Below are positions 7,245 to 38,880 of a DNA stretch of 39,386 nucleotides, in pieces. Both the position numbers and the translations under genes were made by a program. The stretch lies in contig NC_057758.1 in NCBI RefSeq assembly GCF_004010195.1, positions 3,498,750-3,538,135 of the forward strand, given 5' to 3'. This DNA comes from Chiloscyllium plagiosum (taxonomy: Eukaryota). The notes below the pieces were generated by a model. The model saw nothing but the letters and a program-made list of their open reading frames with translations, made no database searches and was not told where the DNA came from. The first letter of the stretch is position 1. The number at the start of each line of letters is the position of its first letter.

Positions 7245-7370
7245 GGAACAGCTACACCAATCCTATCGCTACAAGAGCAGGCCCGATGTTTGGGGTAACT
7301 CCTGCCAATTGATTTCGTCCATATTCTAACACTCGAGGGCACTGATGGGAGTGGAGTTGGAGAACTGTAC
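7245..7370 (-). pseudogene. Possible highly degenerate beta-defensin-like exon 2
   Basis: Pyrimidine-rich AG acceptor, then ALEC*NMDEI... and a C-x5-CS(AGC) remnant in other frames; weak. Confidence 0.25.
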
Positions 7371-7500
7371 CTCGTAAAAGAAAATACTTTTTTTTTCAGG
7401 ATTTGCTATATTTACGAATTTTCAATTGTCTGAATAAAGCTCTGGGATATTTTGGGACTGTGACCGATGCCAAAATTTCTTTTCATCCATATTAATGCCG

Positions 7501-7664
7501 TCATCTCCTCTTCACAGGAGGCTCCCAAGCACTCGGGATGTCACCTATACAGGGGATGAAACGTCTGCAACACAAATTCCCAGCTCGGCGAACAGAACCA
7601 CAACAACGAGCATCCGAGCTACAAATCTTCTCACAAACTTTGAGTAAATAAGGGGGAATTATTT
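7501..7664 (-). CDS. Beta-defensin-like exon 2 with open frame and altered cysteines (may be a pseudogene)
   Basis: Phase-1 AG; IIPPYLLKVCEKICSSDARCCGSVRRAGNLCCRRFIPC...*; aligns to the 32.5-kb peptide (IPP start, x10 and x5-CC spacing) with C1->Y (TAT) and C4->R (CGC); no leader found. Confidence 0.55.
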
Positions 7665-7794
7665 CTTTCAGAGGATTGTCAGCCTTTTGAACGCCAGACC
7701 GCGGTGTTGGGGGATGTGGTCCAGAGTCCTTATATTTCAGACTGACAGAGTTCGAAACTTGATCAATCGCCGCAATAGAGAGATATAGAGAGAT

Positions 7795-8529
7795 AGAAAG
7801 ATGGGGTACTGGGCTAATGGTCGGATACTTGGTAGTGTGGATGAGCAGAGGGATCTTGGTGTCCATGTACACAGATCTTTGAAAGTTGCCACCCAGGTAA
7901 ATAGTGCGGTGAAGAAGGCATATGGCGTACTGGCTTTTATTGTTAGAGGAATTGAGTTCCGGAGTCCTGAGATCATGTTGCAGTTGTATCAGACTCTGGT
8001 GCGGCCGCACCTGGAGTATTGTGTGCAGTTTTGGTCGCCATACTATAGGAAGGATGTGGAGGCACTGGAACGGGTGCCGAGGCGGTTTACCAGGAAGTTG
8101 CCTGGTATGGTAGGAAGATCGTATGAGGAATGGCTGAGGCACTTGGGGTTGTTTTCATTGGAGAAAAGAAGGTTTAGGGGTGACTCGATAGAGGTGTACA
8201 AGATGATTAGGGGTTTAGATAGGGTTGACCGTGAGAACCTTTTTCCACATATGGAGTCAGCTATTACGAGGGGTCATAGCTTTCAATTAAGGGGTGGTAG
8301 GTATAGGACAGATGTTAGGGGTAGGTTCTTTACTCAGCGAGTCATGAGTTCATGGAATGCACTGCCAGTAGCAGTGGTGGACTCTCCCTCTTTATGGGCA
8401 TTTAAGCGGGCATTGGATAGGCATATGGAGGACAGTGGGCTAGTGTAGGTTAGGTGGGCTTGGATCAGCGCAACATCGAGGGCCAAAGTGCCTGTACTGC
8501 GCTGTATTCTTCTATGTTCTATGTTCTAT
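7795..8529 (+). mobile_element. Young 5'-truncated CR1 LINE (ORF2 C-terminus, 3' UTR, (TTCTATG)n tail)
   Basis: ORF 7801-8448 carries RDLGV, LVRPHLEYCVQFWSP, LGLFSLEKRR, TRGH and FFTQRV..WNALP motifs. Confidence 0.95.
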
Positions 8530-8769
8530 ATCGAGGGGAGGGAAAGTGGATGCGCGGAACTGTTGGACCAGAGATATTCCTACTTCAAGGAGGAAAAGGA
8601 TGGAGGGGGCTGTAAGGTCGAATGATGTGGCTATTTCTTACAGACTTACGGTATCCACATTCTCTCCTACTGTTTGTCTGCGCCTCCTCCTCTTTTTTGT
8701 CTCTCCCTCTGTCTCCATACCTTAACCAGCCGTCTGGATTCTTAAATATTTCTATCTTTGAGCCGTGGT

Positions 8770-8897
8770 AGAGTAGTAAGACATTCCCCTCAGAACCGGA
8801 ACTCCCTTATTCCCGTACTCCAGCTAGTCTGAACCACGTCAGCGCAATTGTCAGGAATGAGCCGTACACGGTTGTGATCCAGCAGGTCGCAGTCTTT
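8770..8897 (-). pseudogene. Degenerate beta-defensin-like exon 2
   Basis: cag| KDC-DLLDHN-R(CGT)-VRLIPDN-C...F(TTC)..*, then TAC TAC where CC is expected. Confidence 0.35.
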
Positions 8898-8944
8898 CTG
8901 TGCGAGCGCACAAATACAGAGTGAGCATTTGCCATCCAGGTTTC

Positions 8945-9810
8945 AATCAGTCAATTGGAGAGGACAGTGATGCAGATTGATAGGAAAGAGAATGCACAGG
9001 TCAAGACGGCATTATTGAGTTGGAAGATTGGATCTGGGAGTGTGTGGGGTGAAGTGAAACGGGGGAAACCGCTGAAATCCACATTGATCCCGTGAGAATG
9101 GTGGCACCCGAGACGGAAGATGAGGCATTCTTCTTCCAAAGGTTGGGTGGTTAGGGAGTGGCGATGAAGTATGCTCATGATCTGCAAGTCCTTGGTGGAG
9201 TGGGAGGACGAGTTGAAGTGTTAGACCATGGTGCGGCGGGATTGGTTGGTGTTGGCGCCGGCGACGTATTACTTGAAGTGCTCCACAAGTTGGTGTCCAG
9301 TCTCAAATAATCCTGCCACATCTGACAGAGATTTATCTGTAAGCGGACCACTTCAACTCCCCATCCCACTTCACTAAAGACGTGCAGGTCTTGGGCCTCA
9401 TCTATCGCTAAACTCAAATCATCCGAAGCCTGGAGGTGGAAGGCCTCCTTTTCTGTCTTTGAACCCTCCAACGCCACGAGATCAATGGGGATTTCACGAA
9501 TTTCCTGATTTACGCTCTCTTCCACCTTATCCCAAATCTAACTCGGCACTGCCCTGTCCTATCTAATTATCGTCTATCTATTTATCTACTCCACGCTCCT
9601 CTCCAACCTTTCACCTTCCCACTACCTTCATCTTCTAATTCTTCCTAGCTACCTTTCCCTCAGCGTCACCAACCTCCTGTTTCACTCTTAACCCCCATGT
9701 CCCTGATGAAGGGCGTTTGCCCGAAACGTCGATTCTGCTGCTCCTCCGTAGCTGCCTGACCTTACTCTCAACTCTGATCTCCAACATCTGCAGTTTCATC
9801 TTCTCCCGCA
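8945..9810. mobile_element. Rearranged, diverged Penelope-like fragments in both orientations
   Basis: GAAATCCACATTGAT...GAAGATGAGGCATTCTTC resembles 39325-39386; 9700-9805 is a reverse copy of the 2286/38951 terminus. Confidence 0.7.
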
Positions 9811-9849
9811 GCTTTCAGACCTCAATTCGGTATTGTGCAGGTTTTCAAC

Positions 9850-9997
9850 TTCAGCACATGGACCTCTGCAGTGCCAGAGGAGTGGTGATTGGTGCTGAGC
9901 ATTCATCGGTGAACGTCCACCTCTCCTGAACTTCGTAAGCAGCTGAAGATATTTGGGCCTCAGCTATCACTCTGAGAGTCTTCTGCTAATGATGCTC
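9850..9997 (-). pseudogene. Degenerate beta-defensin-like exon 2
   Basis: tttgcag| phase 1 GASLAEDSQSDS*GPNIFSC-LRSSGE-V-DVHR-*(TGA)...; frameshifted C-RGP..TGC TGA end. Confidence 0.4.
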
Positions 9998-9999
9998 CT

Positions 10000-10720: not shown

Positions 10721-10726
10721 CACCAC

Positions 10727-11302
10727 TGCCGTGAGAGAATAGAAGCGAAGTGTTCATGAAGGTGCTGGTGCAGTGGTTACTGAGGGAACCTTCTCCCCCA
10801 ACATACCCTCCATGGCAACTCACTGAAGGATAGTCCTTCCCTCGGCCTCACTGCGCTCTCCAGACTGGATCGGGATACAGCTTAGTTGTTGCACGTGTAC
10901 AGTGAGAAATGAACAAAACAGGAATCCTGATACTAATAGTATGGAAGTCACTCTCGCATTTATGTAGTTGACTTAGTGTAATAATGCATGTCCGGGGTCA
11001 TATTACATGGTTCCCGTAACAGATAGGTGCTGTGATAGGTTAAGTGCAATGTCGGGAAACAATGTGGCAGATGATGTTTAGTTTCGAAAGGCAGAGAATG
11101 CCAGTATGATTGGTTGCTCTAATGTTATCCAATAAGCGCGGGAACAACAACTGTATAAACTGCAGAGGAACAAAGAGTTTGTGGGTCGTCAGGGAAGACA
11201 TTTTTCTGTCTGCCACAGCTTTGATTTTGCAAGATTAATGTTCAACTTCGTTAAGCGTCTTGGCATTTTTTAAAAACAGAACACAGTGATTCTTCCACAA
11301 CA
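10727..11302 (+). mobile_element. Putative 5' LTR of an endogenous retrovirus/LTR element
   Basis: TG...CA ends with imperfect inverted repeats (TGCCGTGAGAGAAT vs ATTCTTCCACAACA, 10/14); CCAAT near 11129 and TATAAA near 11154; followed by a PBS. Confidence 0.6.
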
Positions 11303-11306
11303 AATT

Positions 11307-11324
11307 TGGTTCCCAAGCTGGGAC
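11307..11324 (+). promoter_or_regulatory. Primer-binding site, tRNA-Glu-like
   Basis: TGGTTCCCAAGCTGGGAC, 4 nt after the LTR CA end; about 14/18 match to the complement of a tRNA-Glu 3' end as recalled. Confidence 0.6.
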
Positions 11325-12764
11325 CAGGAAGAGAATGTTTCCTCTGAAAAGAGGCTTCAGCTGCAGGGCACTTCCAATTTGAACGTGAGGTCTCTTGCAA
11401 CAGACAGAAGATAACGTTTTGCCTCCCACAAAATAAAAAGTAAGCATTTAGCTGATAATTTGGACTATATTCAGTCAAGTCAGTGAGGTTCTCGGAAACA
11501 CAGAATTCCAAGGTAAGCCGCTGATAAGTCACTGATTCAAAGAACCATAAGGTGGATGGTTAATTAAAATTTGAGGAGACGCAGAGGATTGTTCAAGAAA
11601 ACAGGCAGGGGCGTGAATAAGTATAGAATATAAAAATTGAGACAAACGTCCACGTGGTGTATTTAAGATTCTGTGAATATCGCGCTATCTTTAACAAAAT
11701 AAAGAAAAACAAAGCAAAAAGATAACGAAATATGGGGACTACACGGACAGAAACAGGTAAGGATTATTTTATTGTTAGTATTAGTGATTTTGGATGAAAT
11801 TGAAAGCCCGAAAGATTGGTGGTTGATGGATAAATGGAAAATAGTAGAGGATAGTCATAGAGTTAAAGTGTTAGCAGACTGTTGAATGTTTAAGGCAAGG
11901 CCTATACGTAATTAGACTGTAATTTTAGAAATGAAAAAAAAAAAGGTTTGTTTTGTCAAGGCTCTGTGTCTGAGAGGGATAGAGAGAGAAAGAGAGGAGA
12001 GAAAGAGACAGAGGGAGAAAGAAACTCTGGCTCAGTGCTGATATTGTTGCTCTTTGCAGAAGTATTCTGTCTTTGTGTGTGAGTGTCTGTGTGTGTCAAT
12101 GTGTGTGTGGGTGTGACTGTGTGTGTGCCATTGTGGGAGAGCGAGAGAAGCATTGGCTTGCAGATAATTTTCGTGTGTGTCTGTGTGTGTGTGTGTGTGT
12201 CTGTGTCTGTGTCTATGTCTGTGTGTGAGAGAGGGAGAGATAGAGATAGAGATAGAGAGAGAGAGCAAAGCGCTGGCTTGCAGAAGGGCCTTGTGTATGT
12301 CTGTGTGCGCGAGAAAGAGCGAGAGGAAGAATCAGTGGCTTGCAGAAAAGTTTTGTGTCTGTATGAGAGAGAGAGAGAGTTTAACTATTTAATATGGTTT
12401 GTATGCACAATTGATTATTGGTTGTTAACTCCGCCTTTTCCCTGGAGCTCGAGATGCGGGAGTGCTTTGCTTTTATTTTGCACTGTAGGGAGTTAAGAGT
12501 GTTTTATTAGAGACGTTATTCAAGAAACTACTAGTGATTTAGTGCATTCTGCTGATGAAGTACTAGAGCAGCTTAGGCAGCACGAATGAGAATTGGTTGC
12601 TTTAATTAATTATTTGAAAGCAAGGAAGTTTAGTGACTGGTAGATTGGGAAGGAAAGATCGCAAGTTGTAGAGTTAGGGAATACTTATAATAAATGATGA
12701 GGCAGTATCCGACTTGTAAGGCATAAGGGAACATTGTGAGAACAGAGATAATAGATAAGCTGCA

Positions 12765-12823
<59 letters not shown>
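12765..12823. repeat. (TA)n(TG)n microsatellite
   Basis: Direct reading. Confidence 0.95.
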
Positions 12824-12979
12824 ATCTCAGCATAAATGCATGAATAAAGAGACTGCAATTGAAACACTGAGTAAGATATTTCAAGGAGCTTGAAATAATA
12901 TCGTTAAATTTTCTGAAAGATGGGAAAGAAGAACGAAGGATTTATTAACTAAATAGCCGAAGAGAGTACCTTTGACATA

Positions 12980-14902
12980 AATATGTGCGATGAAATGGAA
13001 GGGTTAATTCAGAATTACAGACATTGGATAATTCAAAGAACAGAATACCGAAGTGGGAAGAAGATGTGCAAACTTTCAAGCTGTTGAAGGAGAGGAGTGT
13101 CAGAAACTTTGTCAGGCATTAGTTGCAACTGATGGAGGTGCCAGAGAGGAGAATAAGCACTTTATGTGCATAAAGGCTGGGGATGAGACTATGTCCCCGT
13201 GCTCAGTGCAGAACAATGAGCTTTCATATATGGAGGCCCAGCAGTGGACAACATTTTTTTTTTATTTTGCACGGTGGAAGACTTGGAAACTGCTCTCACC
13301 CGCTATTTAGGTGGACAGAATGTAACGCACTATTCTTTGATGGGCTGTGCAAAAGAGCTCTAGGGGAAATTGAATTGGGAAAAAACCTACCTTGAACAGA
13401 ATGTCTTAAGAATAAAACGAGAGAAGAAAACACAGACGAGGAGGCAAGCAGAATTAGAAGCTATTGACTTGTAAAGAGAGAGATTTCGAGGGGAAATTCA
13501 GAAGCTATGCAGGTTAAGAGAAGGAATGGATTAGGAGACATACTTAAATCATAGCAGGGATGTTAGGCTGAAACAGCCAGAGAGTGATAGGGGAGTGACC
13601 GGGGAAGGAAAGATTCGGAGGCAGTAGTGTGATCAGGAAAATGAGCCCGAACAGAACAAGCGGAAAAAAAAAAGATTATCAAGAGATAGAATTATGGTTT
13701 GAAGTGGAATCTGTGGAGAAATTACAATGTAGCAGCTTTAAAAATAAGGGCAAGAAGCCCCCACCTGGGAAGATAATGCCTTTGATCATAAAAGGGTGAA
13801 GATAGCCACAATACATTCCTTGTGGAACCCAGGATCTGGAAGAGCTAATAAATGTGTTGCCCAGTTGACATGATGGAGCAGGAAAGTGAATTACAACCAT
13901 TGAGGACGAAATCACAGAACGGTTCTTGGCATTGGGGGATTTGAAGGTACTGTTAATAAAGGTGGTGGGACTGTCACAACTAAGAGAGATAATGAATTGA
14001 GCTCGCTCGAAAAATATAGTGGGCAATCCGATGCTTGATGATGCTGGGTTTGATCGAGACAGACAGAATGCATGGCGGGCACGTGGAGATTGTTATACGC
14101 CTAATATTGATCCAAAAGGTTGAACAGGGGATCCACTCGGATACACTGAAAACCCGGCAGCTTATTTGGAAAACCAGTTGAAAACGTGGAGGCTTGAAAA
14201 AGATTGGAAGGTAGTCAGCTGTTGAACACAATGTTCTGGACTGCTTTATTGAAGCAATCTTCCCTCAAGTCAAATCTAAGTTAGAGGAGCTAGAGGGTCT
14301 GACGTGCATGGCCCGCCAGGAATTCAGAGATTATGCAATCAGAGCGTTCAAAAGACTTGGGAAAGACAAGACGAAGCTGGCAGAACAGCAGGAGGAGGTG
14401 CAAAGAAATCTGATACTGCTGCAGCTCGAGGAACTTAAAAAGAAAGAGAGAGAAAAACAAAAAACTGTTGCCTGTGACAACTGGATTGGTTGGCGCCGAT
14501 ATGATGAGTAATATGCTGCTCCAGGAAGAATCATCTAACGCTACCTTGAAAGGGCCAGAAAATGCCATTCAGATAATAAACATTTTTGGGGGACTTTTCC
14601 ACAGTTACCATACCAACAGCAAAATAAACTTAATCAACAGCATAGAAGGGACTTTTGGGGGGGGGGGGGGGGGGGGAATTGGGAGGGTGGGGCGAGAAGT
14701 GTATGGTGAGAAGTCAGATACAGAGAAGATCAGGAATTGTGTGTTGGGGGTCTTGTGACCCATGCCATTTAAGACGAGATAGTCTTATTGGCCCTGGCCC
14801 TCCTGGTCCCAAGTTGTACCGATGAGTCAGGAAGGTCTGGCTGTCCTGCCACAAATCCCTACAGGCTCGATGGAGCCTGTAAATATGTATATGATGTGCT
14901 AG
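12980..14902 (+). pseudogene. gag: Decayed retroviral-type gag
   Basis: From 13776: MPLIIKG..PQYIPCGTQDLEELINVLP..DGAGK*I...LALGDLKVLL; coiled coil 14308-14470; degenerate zinc knuckle VCWGSCDPCHLRRD at 14739-14780; many stops; 5' boundary approximate. Confidence 0.75.
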
Positions 14903-15125
14903 GATTGCCCAGAGAAACCGAGTGAGAAGGGGCAATATTCTATGATAACGCAGGAAGCTGAACATGATCCTTTTGTCCAGGTTAGTGTCGAAGGACGGTT
15001 GAGGCCTATGATGATTAATATTGGAGCTACGTGGTTTTGTGTACAACCGCATATGCCTCGCACCTTCCCACATTAGGTACATGGTGCAGATGTGTTGCGT
15101 ATCTCGTGCAGTAGGATTATAGGAC
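14903..15125 (+). pseudogene. pro: Retroviral aspartic protease remnant, truncated
   Basis: In frame after TAG(14900-14902): DCPEKP...DPFVQVSVEGRLRPMMI-NIG-ATWFCV, with the DTG catalytic motif decayed to NIG. Confidence 0.7.
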
Positions 15126-15129
15126 ACAG

Positions 15130-15720
15130 AAGCACTTAGATCAAAATATCAATATGACATACACATATGCAATATATTGAACAAATATAGATTGCTGTTA
15201 AGTCTTTTGTCTTTTAGAATGGGGCTGCAGGTTCCTATTCCTTAATATGTAAATCCCAGAACTTCTTTCAAGTTGTATTCCCGAGATAATTAAAGGTTGA
15301 ATTTAAAAAGAAGTCACATCTCAGCTCAGACAAAACAATAAAGGAGTGAGTTTAGAGTCTGAATGTATTCTAATATTGAGTCAGGAGTGAGTTTAGAGTC
15401 TGAATGTATTCTAATATTGAGTCAGCCTGATTATATTTTCAAAGTAGGATTGTGTAAAATGATAAAACAATACTGACTGCCGACAGATGGTGTGGTTTTT
15501 GAACAAAATGTAATGGATATGCAAATGTAATTCTGCAAATGGTCATTCACCCAATGGACTTTTGTGTGTTTCTGTGTGCATGTGAGGAAGAGAGGTCGTG
15601 AGAGAGAGAGTGTGTGTGCATGTATGTGTGAGTGCGAGAGTGGGGGAATGTGTGTGTGTGTCTGTGTGTCTGTACCTGTGTGTCTGAAAGAGAGTGTATA
15701 TCTGCAAGAAGGTCTGCGTA
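15130..15720 (+). mobile_element. Interspersed repeat (probably Penelope-type terminal region) truncating the ERV, containing a 41-bp tandem duplication
   Basis: GGAGTGAGTTTAGAGTCTGAATGTATTCTAATATTGAGTCA at 15343 and 15384; family assignment from recall. Confidence 0.5.
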
Positions 15721-15759
15721 AGTATGTTCAAATGTAAAAGGGGGTGTGCATCTGGTCTC

Positions 15760-23559: not shown

Positions 23560-24575
23560 TTGAGTCACAGATAAAAGAGAGGCAGGGAGAGTGAGAGGCC
23601 AAATGTGAAACGGAGTGAATCAGCTTGGTCCACAACAAGTGAGAGTGAGACGAGAGAGAGTGAGTGAGACAATGTGCGTCACTCTGGCAAGCAACAGTGA
23701 GAGATGAGAGAACGGTGTTTGCATGTATCGAAATAAACATAGAAGCAGTCAGAGTGAGAGTGACAGAAAGAATGACAAAGAGACATAGTGAAAGGCAAAA
23801 AGAGAATGAGATATATGGGTGAGATGCAAAAAAGTGCGAGAAAAATAAGGAAGTGACAGGCAGTGACATAGCAATGGAGGAAGATACAGCAGCATAGATT
23901 CCACGTTTTAAAAGGTCTTCCCTTTACTCTCAGGCTGTGCCGTCGTTTCCTATTCTACCCTGCCAACATCTTCCAAACATCACTTGGACCAGACCATTCA
24001 GTTTCAGCTTATAGACCACCGGGATTCTAAATACAAATCTTGGAATAGCCATCTCTCTGACAGCTGGTGGGATTATGGAAAACGAACAGCAATTTGACCC
24101 AGTGAAGGCGGCAGTGAAACTTGGACAGATTCTCTGAAATGCTGATGCAGTGAGATGGTGCAAGCCTGGGATTTATCAGAAGGCGAGTATGGACTTTAAT
24201 GATTTCACGTGGTCAAGGATTCAGCCTGTCGAGTACCATACAACCAGGAACAAGGGCTCTCTAATCGTATTGTTATGGACCTATTGGGTTCAGAGCAACT
24301 CAGCTCTGGGGGGTTAGGACGGACCTTGTACGGAATTGGTCCTCAAAACATCTCCGGGCTTAACAGCACCATCCAAGACAAACCCTCAAACACAGCCCGT
24401 TCACTTTGGAGTAAAGAAGGGGAAGCAGTGGAATTCACCTGGAGTGTGACAGGAAAGTATTCCACTGTAAAAGAACAGTTGGAGAATATGCAATGGGAGA
24501 AAAATTCCGAATCTAAAGCTGCAAATCGTTGTGAAGAGAATCGACAAAGAAACCAGAAAACTACAGTGAGAGTGT
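23035..24575. repeat. Diverged local tandem duplication: 23035-23490 vs 24025-24575
   Basis: Colinear shared blocks AATAGCCATCTCT, TTTGACCCA.TGAA, TTGGACAG, CAACTCAGCTC, GTTAGGACGGACCTTGT; each copy is followed by a GA-rich tract. Confidence 0.9.
24360..24464 (-). pseudogene. Beta-defensin-like exon 2 (frameshifted)
   Basis: ttcttttacag| GILSC-HTPGEFH-C-FPF-F(TTT)-TPK /shift/ VNGLC-LRVCLGW-CC*. Confidence 0.6.
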
Positions 24576-25365: not shown

Positions 25366-25732
25366 ATATTCACAATCCAATTTTTACTGCTCTTTTCCAG
25401 TTATCACGTTTCAGGATTCGGCTTCTCACTTGCCTCTTAAAGTGGGGCTGTTGGAGTCAATTTCCATGAAACTGGGATTGTAAACGGTGTCAGATTCGCT
25501 CTGCCCACTGTCCTTTCCCGGCTGGGAGGAGCTGACTAGAAGAAGAAAGGAGTATTATTCCTCCTTCTTGGGTTCCTGGCCGTGTCTGCAATCAGGCCAT
25601 CACCTTGCCATGGACTTATTTAATTCTCAAAGGTTAGCCACCACCACATTGGGCGTGAGGGTGGGCCTTTTCCAAAGGCTGGACCTCACAGTGAAAATCA
25701 CTACACACTGTCCAAGGAGATGATGGATGAGC

Positions 25733-25980
25733 CTAATCCCAACCATCACTCCATGCAGTGCTACTGGTCCCGGTGACTCTCCACTCCCCATCAGTCCGAC
25801 GAAGGCATTGCCTTCTCTCATATTTTCAATATGCAGCTTGCTGCTCGTTTTCCCTTCGAGAGAAAGGAAGAGCAGGACAATGGCAGGGAAAGAGATGCAT
25901 CCACAAAAACACATATACCCAGAGAGAGAGAGACCCGCAAATACATGCAATAGGAGCGCAAATAGACCAACTGGCCCCTC
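25733..25980 (-). pseudogene. Beta-defensin-like pseudogene (signal exon + exon 2)
   Basis: Leader-like VGLFALLLHVFAGLSLSG|gtatat; acceptor at 25853; ASC-ILKI-*(TGA)-EK../QC-LRRTDGEWRVTGT-S(AGT)-STAWSD-GW(GGT TGG)D*. Confidence 0.5.
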
Positions 25981-26489
25981 ACACCTTTTCCGTGCCTCAA
26001 CATGAGCAGAACTGGTGCTCTCCTTGAAGGCCAGGCAAACAAAAAGACAGACCGACAGACAGACAGAGAAAAACACACACTGACAGAGAGAGATAGACCC
26101 AGAACTACGAAAACTAGGACCTAGTGTCATCTCATTGCCGCCTCAATCTGATGGTAATTGATCCTCGACCTCAATGTCATATTCCAACTTACACTCCATA
26201 CCACTTGATGTCTTTTAAATAATACAAAAAGTTTTATTTTCCTTCAAATATTGTGGCCCCAGCAATAATCTCTGTGACATTCCAGTCTCACACATATGTG
26301 TTGTCAGACCCTGGCTTTCAGGCAAGCCCCCTTTTGAATAGGTAGGAAAATTTAAATTAGATATATGTATGTAAGCTGGGGAATAGAGCGAGAAGTTTGT
26401 CAGAAGATCTGTGGAGCAGCTTAGAGGTTTATTTTCTGGGTGTTGTTGTCGATTCCCAATTGCACGCATCCCCACTCTGTTCTACTCCA

Positions 26490-26594
26490 AAAAAAAAACA
26501 ATTTCAGAGTCAAAAACATTTCACGGGCATTTGTTTGGGAAGATTAATGTTGCAAGTGCCCGCCCCTCCAAATCCCGTTCGCTGACACTCGTGG
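26490..26594 (-). pseudogene. Beta-defensin-like exon 2 with in-frame stops
   Basis: cag| one frame: HEC-QRTGFG-G-AGT-C-NINLPKQMPVK-C-F*L*N-CF. Confidence 0.55.
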
Positions 26595-27446
26595 CTGTCA
26601 GGTGAGACATGTCTTTCGCTTAACTATCTGTTGTCGTGAGGTTTTGTGCGAGTGAAATTAGATTTGATTCTTCACAGTGTGGAAACAGACCTTTTTAGCC
26701 CGAGAAGCCTAAACCGACCATCCAAGGGTAATTGTGCCTGTGTCGGTTAAATGAAAGTGAACCAGTGACCTCCCACAGTCCAAAGATATGCAGGTTCATG
26801 TTCAGTTGCACGAACTGTACACGGATGTGCAAACAAGGTGGGTTAGCGATGAGAAATATAACAAGGGTTATGGTACTGGGTTGTGAGCATTAGAGAGTCG
26901 ATGTGGGCTCGATGGGCCGAATGGCGAATTCAATGGGGATGTTAAGAAAAAGCTGGGGAGAATCAGCAAAACAGGTAAAAAGAGGGAGAAACAGACAGAA
27001 AATTTATGGGAAGAAACAGAAGGCAAATACAAAGAGTGAGATATAAAACAGGAGTAAAAAGGGAAGGGAAATGGGGAGAAACAGCGAAACAGACACCGAA
27101 GGAAATAATAAGAGAGGGAGAGAAGCAGGTAATGGAACGAGACTGGTGCAAAACAATGGGAAATAAATAGCTGAGAAAAGAAAAAGTGCAAAATACAAAG
27201 GAAGAAGTAGACCAGGTTAAATAAGGCGTGAGAATCAAGGAGAGGTGAAGGGATGGAGAATCACAAAGGAAGAAACAGAAGTGATAAAGAAAGACCGAAG
27301 GGGAATGTTGGGAACAGAAAAATACCGAAATGAAAAGAGAGCTGGAATGTTGGGGGAAACTTAGGCAAGGAAACCGGCAGTGGGAGATGTGTAGCAAGAG
27401 TGCAGAAATGAAGAGATAGACACAGCTAGGGACAGTAATGGAGGGG

Positions 27447-27801
27447 TCAGTGGCATTGGTTGTGTAGATAATAATACAGCTCCATGATGGCAATGTGTCC
27501 CTCCATTTTGGACCTCTCTATTTCTCCTGTCATAGTGTGCATAAACTAATCTCTGTGAAAAACTGAGAGACGACCAAGATGTGATAATTAATGCAGTGAG
27601 CATTACTCCCATCTTTTAGAAAGCAGTTGTTCAGGGGATGGTTAACTTTTCAGAATAAAGCAGAAACCGATTGATAAAAATGACAGCGAGCATTAGTCGG
27701 AAGTCAGATGACTCTTACAGTCGGAAGACACCCGTTTTTGTGTCACATAATAAAGCAGCAGATGGCATTGAAGGAGCATCTCCTACTACATGCAATCTCA
27801 T
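27447..27801 (-). pseudogene. Beta-defensin-like pseudogene
   Basis: Leader remnant (MRLH.. / MLLQCHLLLYYV..|gtaaga at 27719); tttttcacag| phase 1 at 27552: ISLC-TL*QEK-*-RGPK-W(TGG)-RDTLPSWS-C-II.. then TGC CAC TGA. Confidence 0.5.
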
Positions 27802-28734
27802 TTGCATGACAGTCTTCTTCTCTGCAGATCCCTCCTTTCCACTCACGTTCCAGCTCATTAACTGCGAAAAGTAAATGAGGTCTCAATTAATAAAATGTTC
27901 AATACATTGTGGCATCAAAACAGCATCACACTGAGCATAATGGAGATGAGAACTGTGCACCATACTACGGTGCTCCTAGTATGGTCTAACAGAGGTTTGT
28001 TATTATTGGAACAGTGTACATTACTTCCAGTGTGGTCAAACTTAGAGACATGGAGAATCGAACCATGCACAGTGATGGAAATTAGGTATAACTTCGAGGT
28101 CATTGAGGTAAGTACATTAACAACACTTAAAAGGCATTTGGACAAATACTTGAATCCGAAAATCTTAGAAGGATATGAGCGAAGTGCTGGGAAATCGGAT
28201 TAGCATAAGTGGACATGTTTACCAAAATGGATCAGCTTGAGCCAAAAGTCTGTTTTTAAGCTGTATGACATGTTAGAGGGATTTGCAAGGGAAGTAAGGA
28301 TAGATTAGTGGCGGGCAGTCGTTTTGGCTACTGTATTGAAAATGATAATGCCATTATTTTCATCAAAATGGTTGATGCTCAGCTTGATAGCTTTTCCTCT
28401 GAATATGTTTTCTTTTATTTCCAATTCTGGTATCACAATTTTCTGATTGTATGAAGGCACACATCAATCATGATCATCCTTCATGGCAGTACAGGTGCAA
28501 CAGGCTAATTGGACGCCATCTGTGCTAATCAATATTTCAGAAGATTGAGCACTTCGAGATGTACCAGGAAAAAATAAGCACGACATCTTTCATTGGCAGC
28601 AAAAGCTCCCACCAGATGAAGGCTGCCAGGATCACTAGCAATCTTTTCCCTAGTTTGCACTGAGTTCCTCGGAGGAGCTATCAAATGAGTGGTGCACGCA
28701 CACCCTTTCTATGAGATCTCAAATGATTCTCCAG

Positions 28735-29099: not shown

Positions 29100-30120
29100 G
29101 ATAGATAATTCAGTGAAGGCTGTTTTTGGTATTACTGCCTTTATTGGTCATTGCTTTCACTGGAGGAGTTGGAGATCGTGTCGTAGCCGTGCAGCACATT
29201 GATTAGACTACTTTTGGGATATTGTGTGCAATTCTGTTCTCTGTGCTATTGGAAGGATCTTGTGAAATTTGAAAGGTTCAGAAAAGTATTACGAGGATGT
29301 TGTCAGAGTTTAAGGTTTTGAGGCTGAAATAGAGGAAGAGGCTGATTAGGCTGGGGCTATTTTTCCTGCAGAGTCAGGAGCTGAGTGATGAACTTATAGA
29401 GGTTTATAAAATCATGAGGGTCAAGAATAGAGTAAATAGACAAATCATTTTCTCTGGAATAGGGAGTCCAAGGAAAAGGGCGTAGGCTTAGCATGAGAGG
29501 GAAAATATGTAGAAGGGACCAAAGGGGCAACTCTTTCACACATAGATTGTGAATGATTAGAATGAGCTGCCCAAGGAAGTGGTGCAGGTTTATAATCGTG
29601 TAACATTTAAAAGACTTCTGGATGGCTATGTGAATAAGAAATGTTCAGAAGAGTGAGGGACAAACAAAAAGTGAAATTGCTGGAGAACTTTGCAGGTCGG
29701 GCACCATCTGTGAAGTAAAAAAAGAGTTCACATTTCATGTTGCGGTACACAGGCATGACGTCCCTCCGCATTCAATGCACAGTAGCAGCAATGTTTACCA
29801 ACTACAAAACGCACTGCTTAACTTCTCCAAAGATCCGCAGACAGCAATTGCCAAAACAATGACCACTTCTGCCTGGAAGGACAAGGCCTGCAGATATATG
29901 TGAACATTACACCCTGCATGTCCCCACTCCAAGCCACTCACAATCCTGACTTTGAAATATTTTGCTGTTCCTGCATGGTCAAGATCTTGGAATTCCTTTT
30001 GTAACGGCACTATGGAATTTGTCTACAACACTTGAAATATAATATTTCAAAAAGGCACTACGTTCTGAAGTGGCAATTGCGTATGGTGATAAATACCAAA
30101 TCCCTGAGTGAATAAAATAA
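29100..30120 (+). mobile_element. Decayed CR1 3' fragment (29100-29660) and second LINE 3' end (29770-30120)
   Basis: Decayed YCVQF, LGLF and WNELP-coding DNA; similarity to 10340-10720. Confidence 0.8.
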
Positions 30121-30419
30121 AAGAAACATTCAAACGTCTGGAGAAGTTGAATCTATCAGGGAGAAAGAGGGTGAGATGTCACGAGACATTGAAAGATGGG
30201 GAAGCAGAGAGAGACTTAACTCATGAAACCTCATGATAGAGAAAGGGAAATATACTCAAAAAATGGATGCACAGCAAGATCACAAAACGAAAATACGGTC
30301 ATGATGGCACAATCTGTTCCACCGATGCCATTCTGTGTGTAAATATTAGGTGTCCACTGAAAGAAAGACGGAATATCAGAAAAGGATCCGAACGCAATTT
30401 GAATCCAAGGTGAAGACTG

Positions 30420-30530
30420 CCTCGTGTGGTGTGCTTTTGAGAAACATGGTCGTACTCCGATATCCAGACTCTGCAAGTAACATCTGATGGAACAACCTCT
30501 TCCAGTAACACCTTCCTTCATCTAACAGCC
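30420..30530 (-). pseudogene. Beta-defensin-like exon 2
   Basis: GC*MKEGVTGRGC-SIR-C-YLQSLDIGVRP-C-FSKA-HH; ATG-less hydrophobic stretch LRIIVIVLWIPVSP upstream near 30890-30935. Confidence 0.45.
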
Positions 30531-31149
30531 CAACCCAAATCGAGTGTTAGAAGCTGATTTTAAAATGCTTAAATTCAGGGAGATCCGGTTGAACACACAG
30601 AGTTTGGGCTCAGCCACATTGACCAATAGATTTGGATGGAATTTGTGTTTCTGATCTCGATGGGCAATGGACAGAGTTCCTTGCCCTAGGCTTTGGTCAG
30701 TGGGTGACTGATGGCTCTCTTTGGGGACCGACATCTTTCACTGGGCATTGTGAATGGGGTCAGAAAAGCACAAAATGAAACATGCAGACCTGCATGTATC
30801 TTTGGGGACATAGCTTCACAGTTGAGAGTGAACAACATTTGACCTTCTCTCCTGCAGCCTCAATGAAGCCTCTCCCTTTTGGCTTGGATGGAAGGAGAAA
30901 CAGGAATCCAGAGTACTATTACTATTATTCTCAGCGTTTGGAATAGAGACTGGTTCGTCTCCGGGCCCCCAGGACTTTCGCATTGTTCCTGTGGACTGAC
31001 ACACAAGCTGAAAGATAGAACCCTTTCACAGACGGGTGGAATTGTGGGAGGAGAGACTGCCATTGCTCTATTCATTGTACAGGGACCCTCTGTCGGCTGA
31101 ATATATTAGAACATACTTCTACAATCAGTAGAATTTGAAATCGGGCCTT

Positions 31150-31472
31150 CTGTCTCAGTGGTTAACAAAATGGGAAATCGCCAGTGGAACTCAGCAAGCC
31201 TTTCAGCACCTACAAACAGACAACTCCCAGTGTCTGCGTGTGTTTTCTCCGAGTTATCCGGTTTCCTCGCACAGGCCAAAGGTATGCGGGCAAGCATAAT
31301 TGGCCATGCTAAATTGCCTATAGTTTTCAGGAAAGTGTAGTTTAGGTGCGTTGGATAGAGGAAAAGTAGCGTTACAGGGTAGGGGAATGCGTCGAGATCG
31401 GATGGTTATCGGAGGCTCTGATTGAGCCTGTTGGGTCTAATGGCCTGTTTCCACACTGTCAGTATTCTATGA
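31150..31472 (+). mobile_element. HE1-type SINE (diverged)
   Basis: CTCAGTGGTTA head, ATTGGCCATGCTAAATTGCC core, GGCCTGTTTCCACACTGT tail. Confidence 0.85.
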
Positions 31473-31513
31473 AATCAGAGTGAATGTTTCGGAGCTACAT
31501 TCAAAAGCATCTG

Positions 31514-31836
31514 TTAACAACACCACGGACGCTCTGAAAAAACAGTGTGAACCAAGTTAATAATGGACTGCAGAGATTCACCAAATCTCCCTGGCGATCT
31601 GTACACAAAGTCAAGGTAATATGAATTGGCAGAAGTCCGTCAGGAGTGTTCTGAGAGGATTATGCATGAGGAATGCGCTACAACATTATTCAAGATATTG
31701 TGATTGTGTTAAACCCCATAGCGTCACATGAATGCCCGAATTGGAACTTACTGATCGGTCCAGGCTCTGCTCGATTTCGCTCAATGACTGTACCCAACAA
31801 CAGAAATGTGTCCTCTGTGTGAAGGCAACATTGCAT
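31514..31836 (-). pseudogene. Beta-defensin-like pseudogene (two exons)
   Basis: 31836-31752 M..FLLLGTVI..|gtaagt; acceptor at 31650; LC-TDRQGD-L-VNL-C-SPLLTW../HCF/SERPW-CC* with two frameshifts. Confidence 0.55.
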
Positions 31837-31858
31837 CTTCACTTGGACTGAGTGGCCT

Positions 31859-31978
31859 TTATTCCTACCAATGATTATGTGGATAAATGTATTCGAGGAA
31901 GGAAGATTTGAAAGATGGAAGGCAAGGACATTATTTACCTTTCTGTGATTTCCCTCACCAAGACTTTGACACTCAAAC
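31859..31978 (-). pseudogene. Degenerate beta-defensin-like exon 2
   Basis: ttag| FEC-QSLGEGN-H../C-PCLPSFKSSFLE-Y(TAC)-IYPHNH-W*. Confidence 0.35.
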
Positions 31979-32084
31979 CTAAATCAATTTGAATAGGCAT
32001 TGGCGAAGCCAAGGCTCTTAAGGTGAAGGCGATTAAATGCCGAAAGCCAGAATGATTTAGGATTTCTGACTGCTTACCAACAAT

Positions 32085-32351
32085 TTATTCCTGTTGTTTA
32101 ATGTTGTAGAAGACAAGATCGTCAGCTGAAGGAGGGTGGTAGGTGCAAACCAGAATGACGATTCCTTTACCAATTCTTCCAATATGACAGGTTTCCCTCA
32201 GAATCGTGACAAATGGTTGTGGCCAAACGATATAACTCTGTGAGGATGGCGCTGTTGGAATAGTTCTGCTTGATTTTACGACCTCCCCCTCGCCCCCATC
32301 AAATGGCGGAGAAACTACAGCATAGACAACAGGCAATGCAACTAATTTTAT
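32085..32351 (-). pseudogene. Beta-defensin-like pseudogene (two exons, 56-bp intron)
   Basis: ATA(for ATG)-KLVALPVVYAVVSPPFDG-G|gcgagg; cacag| phase 1 at 32237: LYRLATTIC-HDSEGN/+1/C-HIGRI-G(GGT)...ADDLV-FY(TTC TAC). Confidence 0.5.
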
Positions 32352-32468
32352 TTATACAAATCAGAAAGCAGTAAGTCAAGTGTCATTTGATCAACACAAT
32401 GGAACGCAGTTGATCAACAGAAATCAGCTGGTCCCTCACACGGTTCTCACATTAGATGTTTTTTTGCT

Positions 32469-32593
32469 TCACATCCGGTTTGACTTGCAGCAGTAGTTCT
32501 CTGCGAGACAAACGTCACTTTGTCGAATTTCATGCGGAAGACAACGGGATTCCCTACAAATTTCATTTTTGAGTTCACAAGGTGGTATGGGGA
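32469..32593 (-). CDS. Beta-defensin mature-peptide exon, intact six-cysteine motif
   Basis: ttcctttttgtcttacag| phase 1: (V)PIPPCELKNEICRESRCLPHEIRQSDVCLAENYCCKSNRM* = C-x6-C-x4-C-x10-C-x5-CC. Confidence 0.85.
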
Positions 32594-32765
32594 CTGTAAG
32601 ACAAAAAGGAACAATTCAATGAGGACCCCACCAGTAGGATTAACCCACCGTCTGTCATTTTGCCAAGTAGTCAGGTCAGCAGAACTGTATCCATTGCTGC
32701 TGGTGTGGTCCAATCGAAGCAGGCCGACACCAAAACTCTGCACAATCTTCCCAGTGTAGACTTAC

Positions 32766-32816
32766 CAAGGGATGTAAAGAGAATAACAGTGCCCAGTGCG
32801 CTCAGTACTGTCTCAT
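32766..32816 (-). pseudogene. Signal-peptide exon for the 32.5-kb defensin, apparently 1 nt short after ATG
   Basis: ATGAG-ACA GTA CTG... = TVLSALGTVILFTSL-G|gtaagt (phase 1, 172-bp intron); the ATG is out of frame by one base. Confidence 0.65.
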
Positions 32817-33596
32817 TAAGGGAGGTAAAGACTAAAAGTGTCGATATACTCCAAGTGTGGTCACAGAGAAAGGTGTGATCTGACCTACAAATGTCATCGA
32901 ACTGAGATATGTGGAGACCACAACTATGTACAGTGTGGTCTTACAAACGGAGTTGAAAATATCTCTATATACAGCGAAAAGGTGAAGCTTAACTAAAGGA
33001 TATGGGGACAAGAAAGTTGTACAGAGCTCCCTGGGGGATTAAGGAAGGTATACAGAGACCAGAAATGTGCACAGTTTTCCTACTGTGACTTAGTCGAGCC
33101 ACATGCAGTCCAGCGCTATGCATAGTTCTCTCAGTGTTGTATAACCGAGGGATAAGGAAAGTAGGACGCTTCACAGATTTCTCATGTCGTCATACCAAAG
33201 AGGATCGAAGCCATCCCTCAGCACAATGTTTCAAGTAGTGTCCTATCGAGAGACATGTGGACCAGAAGTAAGCATAATGCTTCCCGTGTGACTTTATCAA
33301 TGGATATGTATACCAACTCTGTGCACAATGTTTTCTTTCATACAGAAAGTTAAAAAAAAAACAGAAGGATATATGCAAGCAGTTTACCAGACACTTTTGT
33401 ATCGTGCTTCATTTTAAGTACTGTTTTAGAGAAAAAAAACTGTGTTCCTACGGAGTGTATTCCACAGCTCGGGGCTCAGACAGTTGAATACAATCCAAAC
33501 AATGACTGACTGTCTGATCTCTAAATTTATCATAATTAGAATAGTATGGGGATCCTGAATTGTTGTCGCGACTGAAGGATATTGCAGAGATCGGGA

Positions 33597-33958
33597 GTGG
33601 CAGGTCTAAAAGAGATTTGAAAACATGTTGAAACCAGGCTGCTTAGAACAGTTCTTCGTGCATAGTTTTGAGGGTAGATAATTAGCAAATTGAATTGAAC
33701 AGTTCTTCGAAAATTCTCCAAAATGAGATGTTAACTTTTCATTCAGAACTGGCAGGAATGGGATTCTAGCTGCTTGAAAGAAAGCAAAATAAATGTCAAA
33801 ATTCAATTGCAAAACAGCACACGATTGAGGAGCTGATGGTGATGAAATCCGTTTTGAAATAATTGTACTTACAAACAAAAAAAAACTCTAGATTCTCCAT
33901 CCACAGTAATGAGCTCGAAAAACACCAAGACGATGAGCAGGAAAACCAGTGATTTCAT
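33597..33958 (-). pseudogene. Defensin-like gene: intact signal exon plus decayed exon 2
   Basis: 33958: MKSLVFLLIVLVFFELITVDG..|gtaagt at 33872; acceptor at 33772; KNC-SIQFAN-Y(TAT)-LPSKL-C-TKNC...* ACC TGC CAC. Confidence 0.55.
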
Positions 33959-34102
33959 CTTTCCCTGTTGAGTCTGTCCGCTGCACGATGCGATGACCGG
34001 AAGAAGGAGACAATTCATAGCAAATGAGAAACTATTCTGTACTTAATAATCACAGATCAACGTTGAGGATTGGATCCACGTTGTGCTCATTATAATGACA
34101 TT

Positions 34103-34267
34103 TCAATAACTAAGACAAAATGTAACTAGAATCCGAACCCTATCTCGAACATTTGGTTTACTATGCACTGGTCCTTGAAGATAACAGTTCAGGTATATAA
34201 GATGGATTTTAGAAGATAATTGGATATTTGATTTTAGAAGGCATATTGGGTAACTTGACGTTATTAC
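34103..34267 (-). pseudogene. Degenerate beta-defensin-like exon 2
   Basis: ttgcag| YPIC-LLKSNI... (cf. PPCELKNEI) and NC-YLQGPVHSKP/C (cf. CYLQ at 30470). Confidence 0.4.
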
Positions 34268-34339
34268 CTGCAACATGCAGTACATAAAGTAGACGGAATC
34301 ATGGACAGTTACGAAGATGATCATAAATTGAAGAAGGAC

Positions 34340-36510: not shown

Positions 36511-36650
36511 TTATTTTGCTTTACCATAAGAATTTGATGAAAAGCAGTTAACACTACTTCTCACGCTGTGTACATTGCAGTACTGTAGACATTGCATCAC
36601 ATAGATAATACAGAGTCTGCACAATTCTGAGAGTCCAGGTATCAGTTGTC
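36511..36650 (-). CDS. Beta-defensin-like exon 2 with open frame, terminal CC replaced by YG (likely pseudogene)
   Basis: tag| phase 1: ...ELCRLC-IIYVMQ-C-LQY-C-NVHSVRSSVN-C-FSSNS-YG(TAT GGT)-KAK*; no leader found. Confidence 0.65.
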
Positions 36651-37069: not shown

Positions 37070-37337
37070 CTACATGACCGACGGATGTCCGAAATCGTCT
37101 CGGAGAAGCACCTCGGACAAGAGCAGGAGGAGGGTATTCGGCCTTTTGAGCCTGCTGCATAATTAATCATGACCATGTCTGATTGCCCAACTCAACAACC
37201 TCATCCTGATTTCTCCCCAAAATCAACAGATTTGTAAAGCATAATTTCTCCTTCACAAATCCATGTTGAACCTGTCTGATCCAGCCAGTGCTTTCTAAAT
37301 GCTCATGGTGACGGCAGGTTGCCAGATTCTGCACCAG

Positions 37338-37475
37338 TCAGCAGCAGTGCTGTCTGTGTTGGTGAAGTCCAGCGAGGACTCATAGTGGCAAAGGCATCAG
37401 TTGAAGCAAATGACGCTGAAGAGGAGCGATATTTGTTCCAGTTGCAGTGCCAGAGCAACCCTCGTGCCTGGCCCC
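37338..37475 (-). pseudogene. Beta-defensin-like exon 2
   Basis: ctctttcag| phase 1: LLWHC-NWNKYR-S(TCC)-SSAS-F(TTT)-x12-W(TGG)../QH-CC*. Confidence 0.55.
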
Positions 37476-37504
37476 CTGAAAGAGCAGTAAAGTTGGAGAG
37501 TTTC

Positions 37505-37700
37505 TGTAATCCAAAGATATGCAGGTTAGGTGAATTGACCAGACTAAATTGCCCGTATTAATCAGGGATGTGTAGATAAGTGCATTAGTCATGGGAAATG
37601 TAGTATAATAGGAGAATGAATCTGGACGGTGTACTCTTCAGAAGGTCTGTGTGCACCTTTTGTGCCTACTGGCCTGTTTTCACACAGTAGCGATTCTGTG
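37505..37700 (+). mobile_element. HE1-type SINE 3' half
   Basis: CCAAAGATATGCAGGTTAGGTGAATTG...GGCCTGTTTTCACACAGT. Confidence 0.8.
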
Positions 37701-38065
37701 AATTATCTGATGTTATTTATTCATTTTCTGACATTATATTCTGTGTTTTTACATATGTTTCTTTTGCTTTAAGATGGCACTAGAGAGTGGCGACAGTATA
37801 AAATACGTTTCATGACGTTTAGGAACGAGATATGAGTGACATTAAATATATCAATGAATAATTAAATCAACATCAGACAGCATTCCCACCTCAAAATCCT
37901 CCTGTTATTTTCAAAACAATTCATACTTTCTCACGATCATTTCATTTGAGATGACATTCCAGAAACCACATTGTGATGTTGGTTTAAACAGTATCACCAC
38001 TTCCACATATTCCAATTATTTTGGACAACAACCTTACTAATACATTTCTCTTTATTTTTTATATA

Positions 38066-38198
38066 TTATAGCTTCCAAATGTTTCCTGTTTTTATTGGAC
38101 ACGATTCCCACTTCCACGTGTTCACTGATACGATCAGCAAAATTTGCACTTCCATCTGTCCCTCTCTTTTCAGACAATATTCCCGATTCCACATTCCC
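38066..38198 (-). pseudogene. Degenerate beta-defensin-like exon 2
   Basis: REYC-LKREG./W(TGG)-KCKF-C../ES-C-PIKTGNI-W; AATAAA just downstream. Confidence 0.45.
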
Positions 38199-38276
38199 CT
38201 GTTATTTTGGCTGGAGTTGCCACTTCCACATAATTTTTCTTGTTTAGGCAGTGTCCGCACTTCCACACGTTCTCTG

Positions 38277-38408
38277 TCATTTAAGGCAGCATTCCAAGTT
38301 CCTCATGTTGCTGTTATTTTCTACTGTTTTGGAGAAAGGTTTTCAAGAGGACTCCTGTGCCATGTGTTTAGACATTGACCTTTGTTCGGAGCTCCTTATC
38401 AATTCAGC
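38277..38408 (-). pseudogene. Beta-defensin-like exon 2
   Basis: ctctcccag| N**GAPNKGQ-C-LNT-W(TGG)...; frameshifted end RNLE-CC-LK*. Confidence 0.5.
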
Positions 38409-38495
38409 CTGGGAGAGGTCATTGGGGACAGAGTCCAATGCATTCTGCAGACTCCCTACCTCCTAATATAGTGTAGGATGTTCACACATTTCTCG

Positions 38496-38638
38496 TTAAA
38501 ATAATTGCTTGCAACATTGATATCAGGGATTGCCACATCTCCTCTATTCGTTGTGCCCTTCCAAAGGCATTTGACAGCTGCATCGTAACGGAGTGGACGA
38601 TGAGTGTCATCTTATGCAGCTGCTATTTAACATTTTTC
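38496..38638 (-). pseudogene. Beta-defensin exon 2 with three in-frame stops
   Basis: tcttag| phase 1, one frame: KMLNSSC-IR*HSS-S(TCC)-TPLR-C-SCQMPLEGHNE*RR-C-GNP*YQ-CC-KQLF*. Confidence 0.75.
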
Positions 38639-38792
38639 CTAAGACATACATTAACATTTCAGTACATACTACATGCACAAAACTTGTACTGCAGTTTTGA
38701 AATCGATATGCAACTCTCCCCAACATTTGTTTCTCCTTGCTGTTTCTGAACTTTACTCAAACTGATTGTGTGGAATCTGGGCTGAGGCGACC

Positions 38793-38880
38793 TTAGTGGC
38801 AGATTGAAGCAGGATGTTCGGTGAGGCCAATTTCAATTTTGAGATCATCTCGCTGCCTCTTGTTCGTTGTTCTCAATGGG
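38793..38880 (-). pseudogene. Possible degenerate beta-defensin-like exon 2
   Basis: *(TGA)-EQRTRG-S(AGC)-EMI../KIEIGLTEHPASI-CH*; weak. Confidence 0.3.

Follow-up and report, generated by a model that had tools for sequence, protein, structure and literature searches.

What does a stretch of shark DNA hold when beta-defensin-like cysteine patterns can be read from almost every part of it that lies between retroelements? The question is raised by 39,386 nucleotides of the Chiloscyllium plagiosum genome (contig C49, 9.98 Mb, positions 3498750-3538135, in an assembly of 3.56 Gb and 101,977 contigs), called the window below, for which a sequence-only reading had proposed a hidden array of 25-30 beta-defensin-like units, all on the minus strand and nearly all dead. 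We put a probability of roughly 85% on the window holding three decayed beta-defensin gene copies, here named A, C and E, within a sparse, live cluster on C49. Real defensin exons are present, as had been observed, but not in the number or the minus-only arrangement described; of the interpretation, the family, the gene plan and birth and death stand; what falls is the number and density of units, the restriction to one strand and the majority of the named units. The parts of the three genes are as follows (window coordinates).

34043..34052, minus strand: promoter element of gene A, about 94 nt before the ATG.
33873..33958, minus strand: exon 1 of gene A, 86 nt, with the ATG (33958), a hydrophobic signal peptide and a short pro-piece.
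32594..33872, minus strand: intron of gene A, 1279 bp, collinear in paralogues.
32469..32593, minus strand: coding part of exon 2 of gene A, consisting of the acceptor, 2 nt, four codons, the six-Cys segment and a stop at 32471-32469.
32347..32468, minus strand: 3' untranslated region (UTR) of gene A, ending in AATAAA (32352-32347), a context common to the intact genes.
28565..28650, minus strand: probable decayed exon 1 of gene C, with no ATG and an internal frame change.
27743..27861, minus strand: exon 2 of gene C, 51.9 bits (E 2e-15) with the external DNA profile.
25543..25632, plus strand: orphan exon 1 of gene E, a signal-peptide frame with the start codon lost and an internal stop.
25633..26655, plus strand: intron remnant of gene E; homology to the paralogue ends at 26655, at a repeat-like insertion just before exon 2 would begin.

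Exon 2 of gene A carries six cysteines in the arrangement C-x6-C-x4-C-x10-C-x5-CC, the first (Cys1) at 32579 and an AG acceptor 14 nt before it, in an open frame. Used as a query against the genome, this exon gave 14 matches, and these together with Pfam hits seeded the exon-2 profiles, into which only exons outside the window were admitted (six with their UTR in the first profiles, 13 in a broader one; the leader, or exon 1, profile was built from five external genes). The collected outside exons all share the 6-4-10-5 spacing and the acceptor 14 nt before Cys1. With the six-exon profiles exactly two units were found in the window, at 252 and 52 bits on DNA and 63.5 and 21.3 bits on protein. 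The 13-exon profile returned the same two at 71.0 and 24.9 bits on DNA, and its next-best match reached 8.9 bits, compared with shuffle maxima of 5.0 on average and 14.8 at most (n=30). A strict six-frame scan agreed: it gave one six-Cys motif (32579, minus strand), one five-Cys motif outside the CA tract (27847), and no five- or six-Cys motif on the plus strand. In the surrounding 139 kb the six-exon profiles detected six exon-2 units in total, the four beyond the window lying at window-relative +62.6, -9.6 and -18.7 kb on the minus strand and at -29.6 kb on the plus strand. The proposed cluster is real, then, but it is sparse, with six exon-2 units per 139 kb, not dense. That annotation based on open reading frames (ORFs) misses these units was correctly foreseen, as Pfam at E<=0.01 found no defensin among 147 window ORFs; the 147 searched, of 168 with at least 62 amino acids (aa), gave one endonuclease-reverse transcriptase match, two sub-threshold matches and no defensin.

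By motif, predicted fold and gene plan, the window family appears to belong with the vertebrate beta-defensins, as had been suggested. PF00711 matches seven of nine aligned family members (best E 8.9e-06), and the member at C49:5.71 Mb passes its cut-off with 24.3 bits; two other members gave no hit. A genome search with PF13841 returned five weak partial matches. The AlphaFold model of gene A (pLDDT 80.8, pTM 0.50) has a helix (H4-7) and three strands (E11-13, E21-24, E33-37), and with this model the first ten rows in Foldseek were human beta-defensin 1 variants and AvBD3, and the first eight in VIA were all beta-defensins; the leading ranks across the two tools went to duck AvBD3 and human beta-defensins 1 and 2. 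The top three entries in the ESM atlas were defensin clusters (recognition 3213), and a sequence search of the PDB returned only gallinacin-2, at E 0.93. The gene plan of a signal exon followed by a phase-1 mature exon, also part of the earlier interpretation, is seen in three fully intact two-exon genes read outside the window (C49:3492481-3489068, C49:5.71 Mb and one on C101976), whose phase-1 exon 1 measures 91, 94 and 97 nt; the intact relative at C49:5.71 Mb has an intron of 1330 bp. Several results weigh against this assignment. Exon 2 of gene A reaches only E 0.0039 and 17.6 bits with PF00711, below the cut-off of 21; the fold scores, taken as absolute values, are weak (Foldseek E 0.94 and TM 0.63; VIA best Z 4.4, rmsd 1.8, 36 residues aligned); the ESM atlas scores of 0.76-0.82 lie under 0.9; and no relative was found in large protein collections, searched with exon 2 among proteins of 22-70 aa and with alignment A2 among longer ones, or among 1.84 billion protein representatives. 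With so short a query and collections made up largely of microbial proteins, this negative is a weak one. Each of the fold and profile lines is modest, as expected for 40 residues, and it is their mutual agreement, together with the gene structure, that argues for a beta-defensin.

A live member of the family, as its sequence shows, has an exon 1 encoding a hydrophobic leader and a short pro-piece, then an intron of 1.3-5 kb in phase 1, and an exon 2 with the six-Cys domain and a UTR containing AATAAA. Its peptide is predicted to form a helix and three strands in the beta-defensin fold and, by analogy with the family, would be secreted, trimmed and held by three disulfides (1-5, 2-4, 3-6), with antimicrobial and chemotactic activity at an epithelial surface. 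Because the charge of exon 2 is low (0 to +3), signalling or binding of a narrow target is at least as likely as membrane lysis. Many mammalian beta-defensins act as chemotactic ligands or reproductive-tract peptides, and we tentatively allow that the live shark members too may be mainly of this kind and not mainly antimicrobial. The exon-2 net charges, which span only -2 to +3 (0 for gene A, -2 for gene C, +1 to +3 for the others), would fit such a role, and so, if only suggestively, would the rhodopsin-family receptor genes interleaved with the cluster; neighbouring genes nevertheless show no ligand pairing, the pro-piece may add charge, and the part of the source available to us presents teleost defensins with charges of +1.8 and +3.9 as cationic antimicrobial peptides and also describes anionic fish beta-defensins (PMC8231796).

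Gene A itself is probably a young pseudogene. Its exon 1 scores 167 bits with the leader profile and is supported by paralogue alignment, the signal peptide being assigned by direct reading of hydrophobicity. The exon can end at a strong donor at 33872, in phase 2, or at a weaker in-frame (phase-1) donor at 33876, 4 nt upstream. When the strong donor is used, translation stops six codons into exon 2, and it is because splicing at this consensus donor shifts the frame that a pseudogene is the most likely reading. It is unlikely, in our estimation, that gene A is alive and yields an in-frame secreted peptide, either through use of the weak donor at 33876 or because the run of nine T with which exon 1 ends is an assembly slip. 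Speaking for this, gene A has kept all six cysteines, the acceptor, the ATG, a good hydrophobic core and the AATAAA, its frame stays open when the alternative phase-1 donor is used, and the promoter motif is present. Yet of the two donors it is the out-of-frame one that fits the consensus, the TATA-like box has decayed, the subfamily is near-neutral with frequent loss of cysteines, and most paralogous exon 1s are likewise out of phase (apart from the 5.71-Mb gene, one of six A-like exon 1s compared is in phase). What tells against the pseudogene reading is the weak in-frame donor together with the unconfirmed length of the T run, which contigs of the DNA reads did not show; the death of gene A is therefore likely and not certain. 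Single-cell RNA from one sample of unstated tissue (two runs, of which 2% and 6% were read) gave almost only repeat reads over 27400-34300; exon 2 was covered by roughly a single read, no read crossed a splice junction, and none was placed from the second run, so that these data speak neither for nor against expression.

The promoter element belongs to a 10-nt motif found at -88 to -94 in all three intact genes compared, and the copy in gene A is the only minus-strand match to it in the window. In intact paralogues a TATA-like box follows. Element and box have been conserved between subfamilies whose peptides share only 21-39% identity. We take the element to resemble an HNF1 site, which would hint at expression in gut, liver or kidney.

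Genes C and E, judged by their lesions, appear to be pseudogenes of the beta-defensin family and not working members. Exon 2 of gene C keeps the family acceptor position and spacing with five cysteines; its Cys1 position (27847) reads CGT (Arg), where the paralogue on C97561 has TGT, and its downstream poly(A) signal is decayed. That paralogue retains Cys1 and AATAAA and bears a 34-nt internal duplication, which also occurs in contigs of both DNA runs. With itself included, exon 2 of gene C has 12 genomic relatives at E<=0.001. Its exon 1, separated by an intron of 703 bp, is weak alone (6.7 bits, E 0.053 with the leader profile), and the inverted paralogue scores 28.7 bits. Gene E is a plus-strand remnant absent from the sequence-only reading. 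Its exon 1 reaches 12.1 bits (E 0.0012) with the leader profile against a maximum of 4.6 in 20 shuffles, and in the inverted paralogue the corresponding exon is intact, 85 nt long and in phase 1, with the six-Cys pseudo-exon at -18.7 kb following 812 bp downstream. A profile search of the window found no exon 2 downstream of gene E; the insertion at 26655 is presumably a SINE (short interspersed element).

Only one of the six exons that had been put forward as clearest survives comparison with the external profile: 32469, exon 2 of gene A (53.5 bits on protein, 71.0 on DNA). The other five fail, two of them being wholly or partly dispersed repeats; 38496, 24360, 7501 and 26490 score at most 2.9 bits each, and 36511 scores 1.0 bit on protein and 8.9 bits on DNA (E 0.028), a value exceeded by two of 30 shuffles. 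The candidate at 38496..38621 (minus) has the wrong spacing and stops in every copy read, with only the terminal Cys-Cys kept in all four paralogues read. The 7501 exon (7510..7643, minus) is a young dispersed repeat of 135 nt with 1201 candidates in the genome, the best 39 non-self matches being 93-97% identical and spread over many chromosomes. At 24360..24520 (minus) a frameshift is needed, and a 70%-identical paralogue has lost the first two Cys codons and kept the terminal Cys-Cys. The 26490 "exon" is the antisense of the gene E intron remnant, and at its four Cys positions the inverted paralogue has no Cys codon. The most defensin-like of the rejected exons, 36511..36628 (minus), has four cysteines with family-like spacing and the exact acceptor position; its 3' third is a dispersed repeat present on at least 12 large contigs, the terminal CC is found in none of seven close and none of three distant paralogues, the distant paralogues lack Cys1 or the frame, and neither Pfam nor the ESM atlas gave a defensin match. 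As a point on the other side, its frame is open in all eight close copies, and with the E of 0.028 for the 5' half this leaves some chance, in our view a small one, that the 5' part is a truncated defensin remnant. Among further candidates, a stretch resembling a leader, 55-70 bp upstream of gene A exon 2, is part of the intron and is interrupted by a stop in almost every copy; a five-Cys match at 29942 lies in a high-copy repeat (depth 6000-10000, compared with 150-770 in cassette DNA); a leader candidate at 18410 has no match to the leader profiles; and a plus-strand DNA match of 7 bits at 26505 is within noise.

How, then, could 25-30 units be read from this DNA? We put the criteria of the sequence-only reading into a loose rule that asks for defensin spacing with an AG upstream, lets every Cys position be filled by a Cys codon or by one that differs from it in a single base (14 of the 64 codons qualify as such neighbours), allows stops and requires at least three true cysteines. 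Over 7245-38880 it gave 37 hits on the minus strand and 24 on the plus strand. Dinucleotide shuffles gave 24.2±3.7 (n=12), and three 30-kb sets of control DNA, each strand counted, gave 19, 34, 21, 23, 20 and 23; these controls are not wholly independent because they were drawn from defensin-bearing or neighbouring contigs. The count of 37 against 24-25 in dinucleotide shuffles is an excess, and it weighs against our reading. TGC, however, is commoner on the minus strand (527 against 462), and minus-strand shuffles that preserve trinucleotides (30±4, maximum 38, n=12) or tetranucleotides (32±4, maximum 41, n=12) shrink the excess to 1-2 standard deviations. Only two of the 37 minus-strand hits, those of genes A and C, are real exons. 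Requiring at least four cysteines and permitting one frameshift leads to a similar picture (32 minus, 22 plus, 22 in shuffles, 20-34 in controls), as does a loose search for a hydrophobic leader followed by GT (23 minus, 20 plus, 19-30 in six shuffles). The count of 25-30 units is thus the chance expectation, and near-equal density on the plus strand and in shuffles argues against the array. The rule that leaders lie 55-250 bp upstream fares no better, since the real leader of 32469 is 1279 bp away and loose leader hits occur as often on one strand as on the other, and a minus-only arrangement is contradicted by the plus-strand remnant of gene E and by units on both strands of the 139-kb cluster. 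That there nonetheless exists an array of 25-30 very old, all-minus pseudogenes beyond the reach of profiles is a reading we regard as largely refuted and highly improbable: the strand imbalance of the loose rule, an AG at the family position in five of 37 minus hits (two of the five being genes A and C) against one of 24 plus hits, and the score of the 5' part of 36511 speak for it, and against it stand the higher-order shuffles, the control strand with 34 hits, the named units that are repeats or unconserved in paralogues, the real units on both strands, and genuine decayed copies, to which the same profiles give scores (21-52 bits) well clear of noise. The remaining 20-plus "units" are Cys patterns that repeats and introns show by chance; when Cys patterns are read this permissively, a false "defensin" turns up about every 1.2 kb on each strand.

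The three decayed genes fit a history of birth and death, as was proposed from the sequence: cassettes were copied whole, and copies later lost cysteines, splice sites or frame. The segment at 22.8-33.8 kb of the window has an inverted copy of about 70% identity (63-71%) at -16 to -31 kb, which is 38-64 kb away. The 1.8-kb unit of gene A recurs at 85-89% identity, its exons being no more identical than its intron, and A-like and C-like exons occur together on C88159, C97561 and C101847, 2.8-4.4 kb apart. Summed contig depth is 145-770 for cassette DNA against 13-19 for window-identical contigs, which is consistent with many copies and gives no copy number. The paralogue L051 joins window position 34953 directly to 19773, so that this paralogue lacks the 15-kb block in which the window has genes A, C and E; the 34953 end of this junction is in multi-copy DNA. 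The copying of these multi-kb cassettes may have taken place by unequal recombination between repeats. Two single-exon rhodopsin-family receptor ORFs are interleaved with the defensin genes, at L018:2117-3040 (minus, about +72 kb window-relative, PF00001 E 1e-16) and at L016:8352-8747 (minus, about +58 kb, PF00001 E 3.6e-07); a weak CXCR4 likeness was all that the PDB gave.

Five single-protein searches of the genome gave, at E<=0.001, 14 of 14, 19 of 38, 25 of 59, 12 of 19 and 76 of 86 rows, which merge to 143 distinct exon-2-like places, a lower bound for matches and not a gene count. As 32 of them have a stop inside the match and 111 have none, the description "mostly dead" does not extend genome-wide, with the qualification that only stops were scored for most copies. 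Contigs numbered 51 or lower hold 45 of the places (12 on C49, 17 on C8, 5 on C48), and 98 are on small contigs, many of which may be alleles or assembly duplicates, a point against a large live family. Fourteen further exons were read; all have the family frame and most have six cysteines. Subfamily A looks neutral by its sequence changes, with five Cys-losing changes and one copy with two stops among 10 copies, and a nonsynonymous/synonymous ratio of 0.87 (distinct changes). Subfamily B has six cysteines in seven of eight copies and no stops. Outside the cysteines it too gives no purifying signal (pN/pS 0.84, distinct-change ratio 1.35), a further point against our reading; diversifying selection would account for the pattern, and so would copies that are young and neutral. 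A dispersed subfamily (C8:50850259-50850378, L073 type) accounts for 76 places, on C6, C7, C8, C11, C16, C23, C32, C38, C39, C48 and small contigs. Its copies, one of which was read, are 46-100% identical, with stops in 24 of the 76, and have a divergent six-Cys exon with the family acceptor position. This scatter suggests that a mobile or segmentally duplicating unit carries it.

Some other features of the window deserve mention. Positions 1-7200 and the preceding 15 kb form a long, degenerate, CA/CT-rich, satellite-like tract with a 222-N assembly gap, and an intact subfamily-B gene sits within it. At 11200-15500, open frames and terminal-like stretches give the impression of what we take to be an old LTR-type (long terminal repeat) element, for which Pfam on the window ORFs gave no match. 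An inverted pair of 409 bp, 99% identical, is formed by 38978-39386 and L015 (window-relative 41520-41928), and an identical 134-bp stretch occurs at 2286-2419 and 38951-39084; both are probably ends of a young retroelement. At 18482-18603 (minus) a 120-nt core with an acceptor, an 88-nt open frame and a donor is kept better than its flanks, and its distant paralogues occur on C49 and small contigs only. Pfam gave no match for this core, which may belong to a different multi-copy family as one of its exons, and no relative was found for the nearby frame at 19077-19337.

The window itself is ordinary, with three broken genes; the family behind genes A, C and E is not. It appears, as had been thought, to be undescribed in sharks, and its novelty there is probable: a literature search, in which subscription journals were thinly covered, turned up no paper on shark beta-defensins, in the accessible part of a 2019 review the antimicrobials named as isolated from sharks and skates are transferrin, squalamine and kenojeinin and no others (PMC6795676), and in the available text of a shark skin proteomics paper "defensin" appears solely in a reference (PMC10707392). 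We lean slightly towards the view that sharks possess an unreported beta-defensin repertoire above any teleost or bird set, with upwards of 100 loci that make up four subfamilies or more, many of the loci still functional, a two-exon ancestral structure and a shared promoter element, part of it cassette-expanded on a small CTSB-unlinked chromosome and part (76 places) spread over at least 10 chromosomes as if mobile or segmentally duplicated. If true, this would push massive birth and death of defensins back to the base of jawed vertebrates and would offer dozens of salt- and urea-adapted host-defence peptides for testing. A large two-exon repertoire in a cartilaginous fish would bear on the ancestral gene structure and on the timing of defensin clusters, and the intact genes are concrete peptides to test in connection with the often-cited infection resistance of shark skin.

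Among known systems, the defensin-fold venom and egg peptides (crotamine, platypus DLP, gallin) and the big defensins share the fold at Z 2.5-2.9, below true beta-defensins. The N-terminal domain of big defensins is missing from the three intact shark genes read, and no sign of a venom role was seen for the shark family. Teleost beta-defensins, of which up to seven genes with three exons are reported in the available part of the source (PMC8231796), have six cysteines and a prepropeptide of about 65-70 aa in common with the shark family, but their mature peptide is split over exons 2 and 3, whereas in the shark genes the stop and the AATAAA lie in the same exon 2; a gene of two coding exons, the second bearing both stop and UTR, is given in that source as the ancestral arrangement (PMC8231796). 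In birds the cluster comprises 14-22 genes between CTSB and TRAM2, according to the portion consulted (PMC4571063), in contrast to the 143 places of the shark family over megabases and several chromosomes, and the cathepsin-B-type propeptide PF08127, a mark of the CTSB-flanked avian cluster, had its only hit on C9 and not on C49. Against the tetrapod comparators (hBD-1 2nlb, hBD-2 1fd3, mallard AvBD3 7lzl, crocodile CpoBD13 7t9q, chicken gallinacin-2 2lg5) the shark peptides are only 21-32% identical and their charge is low. The 6-4-10-5 spacing of gene A nevertheless falls inside the vertebrate beta-defensin motif range, C-x(4-7)-C-x(3-6)-C-x(7-10)-C-x(5-6)-CC in the sections available (PMC4571063), and equals that of avian AvBD8 (PMC4571063, Table 2); and with the tetrapod beta-defensins (PF00711/PF13841) the family shares the six-Cys frame, the predicted fold, the signal and mature exons, and clustered birth and death.

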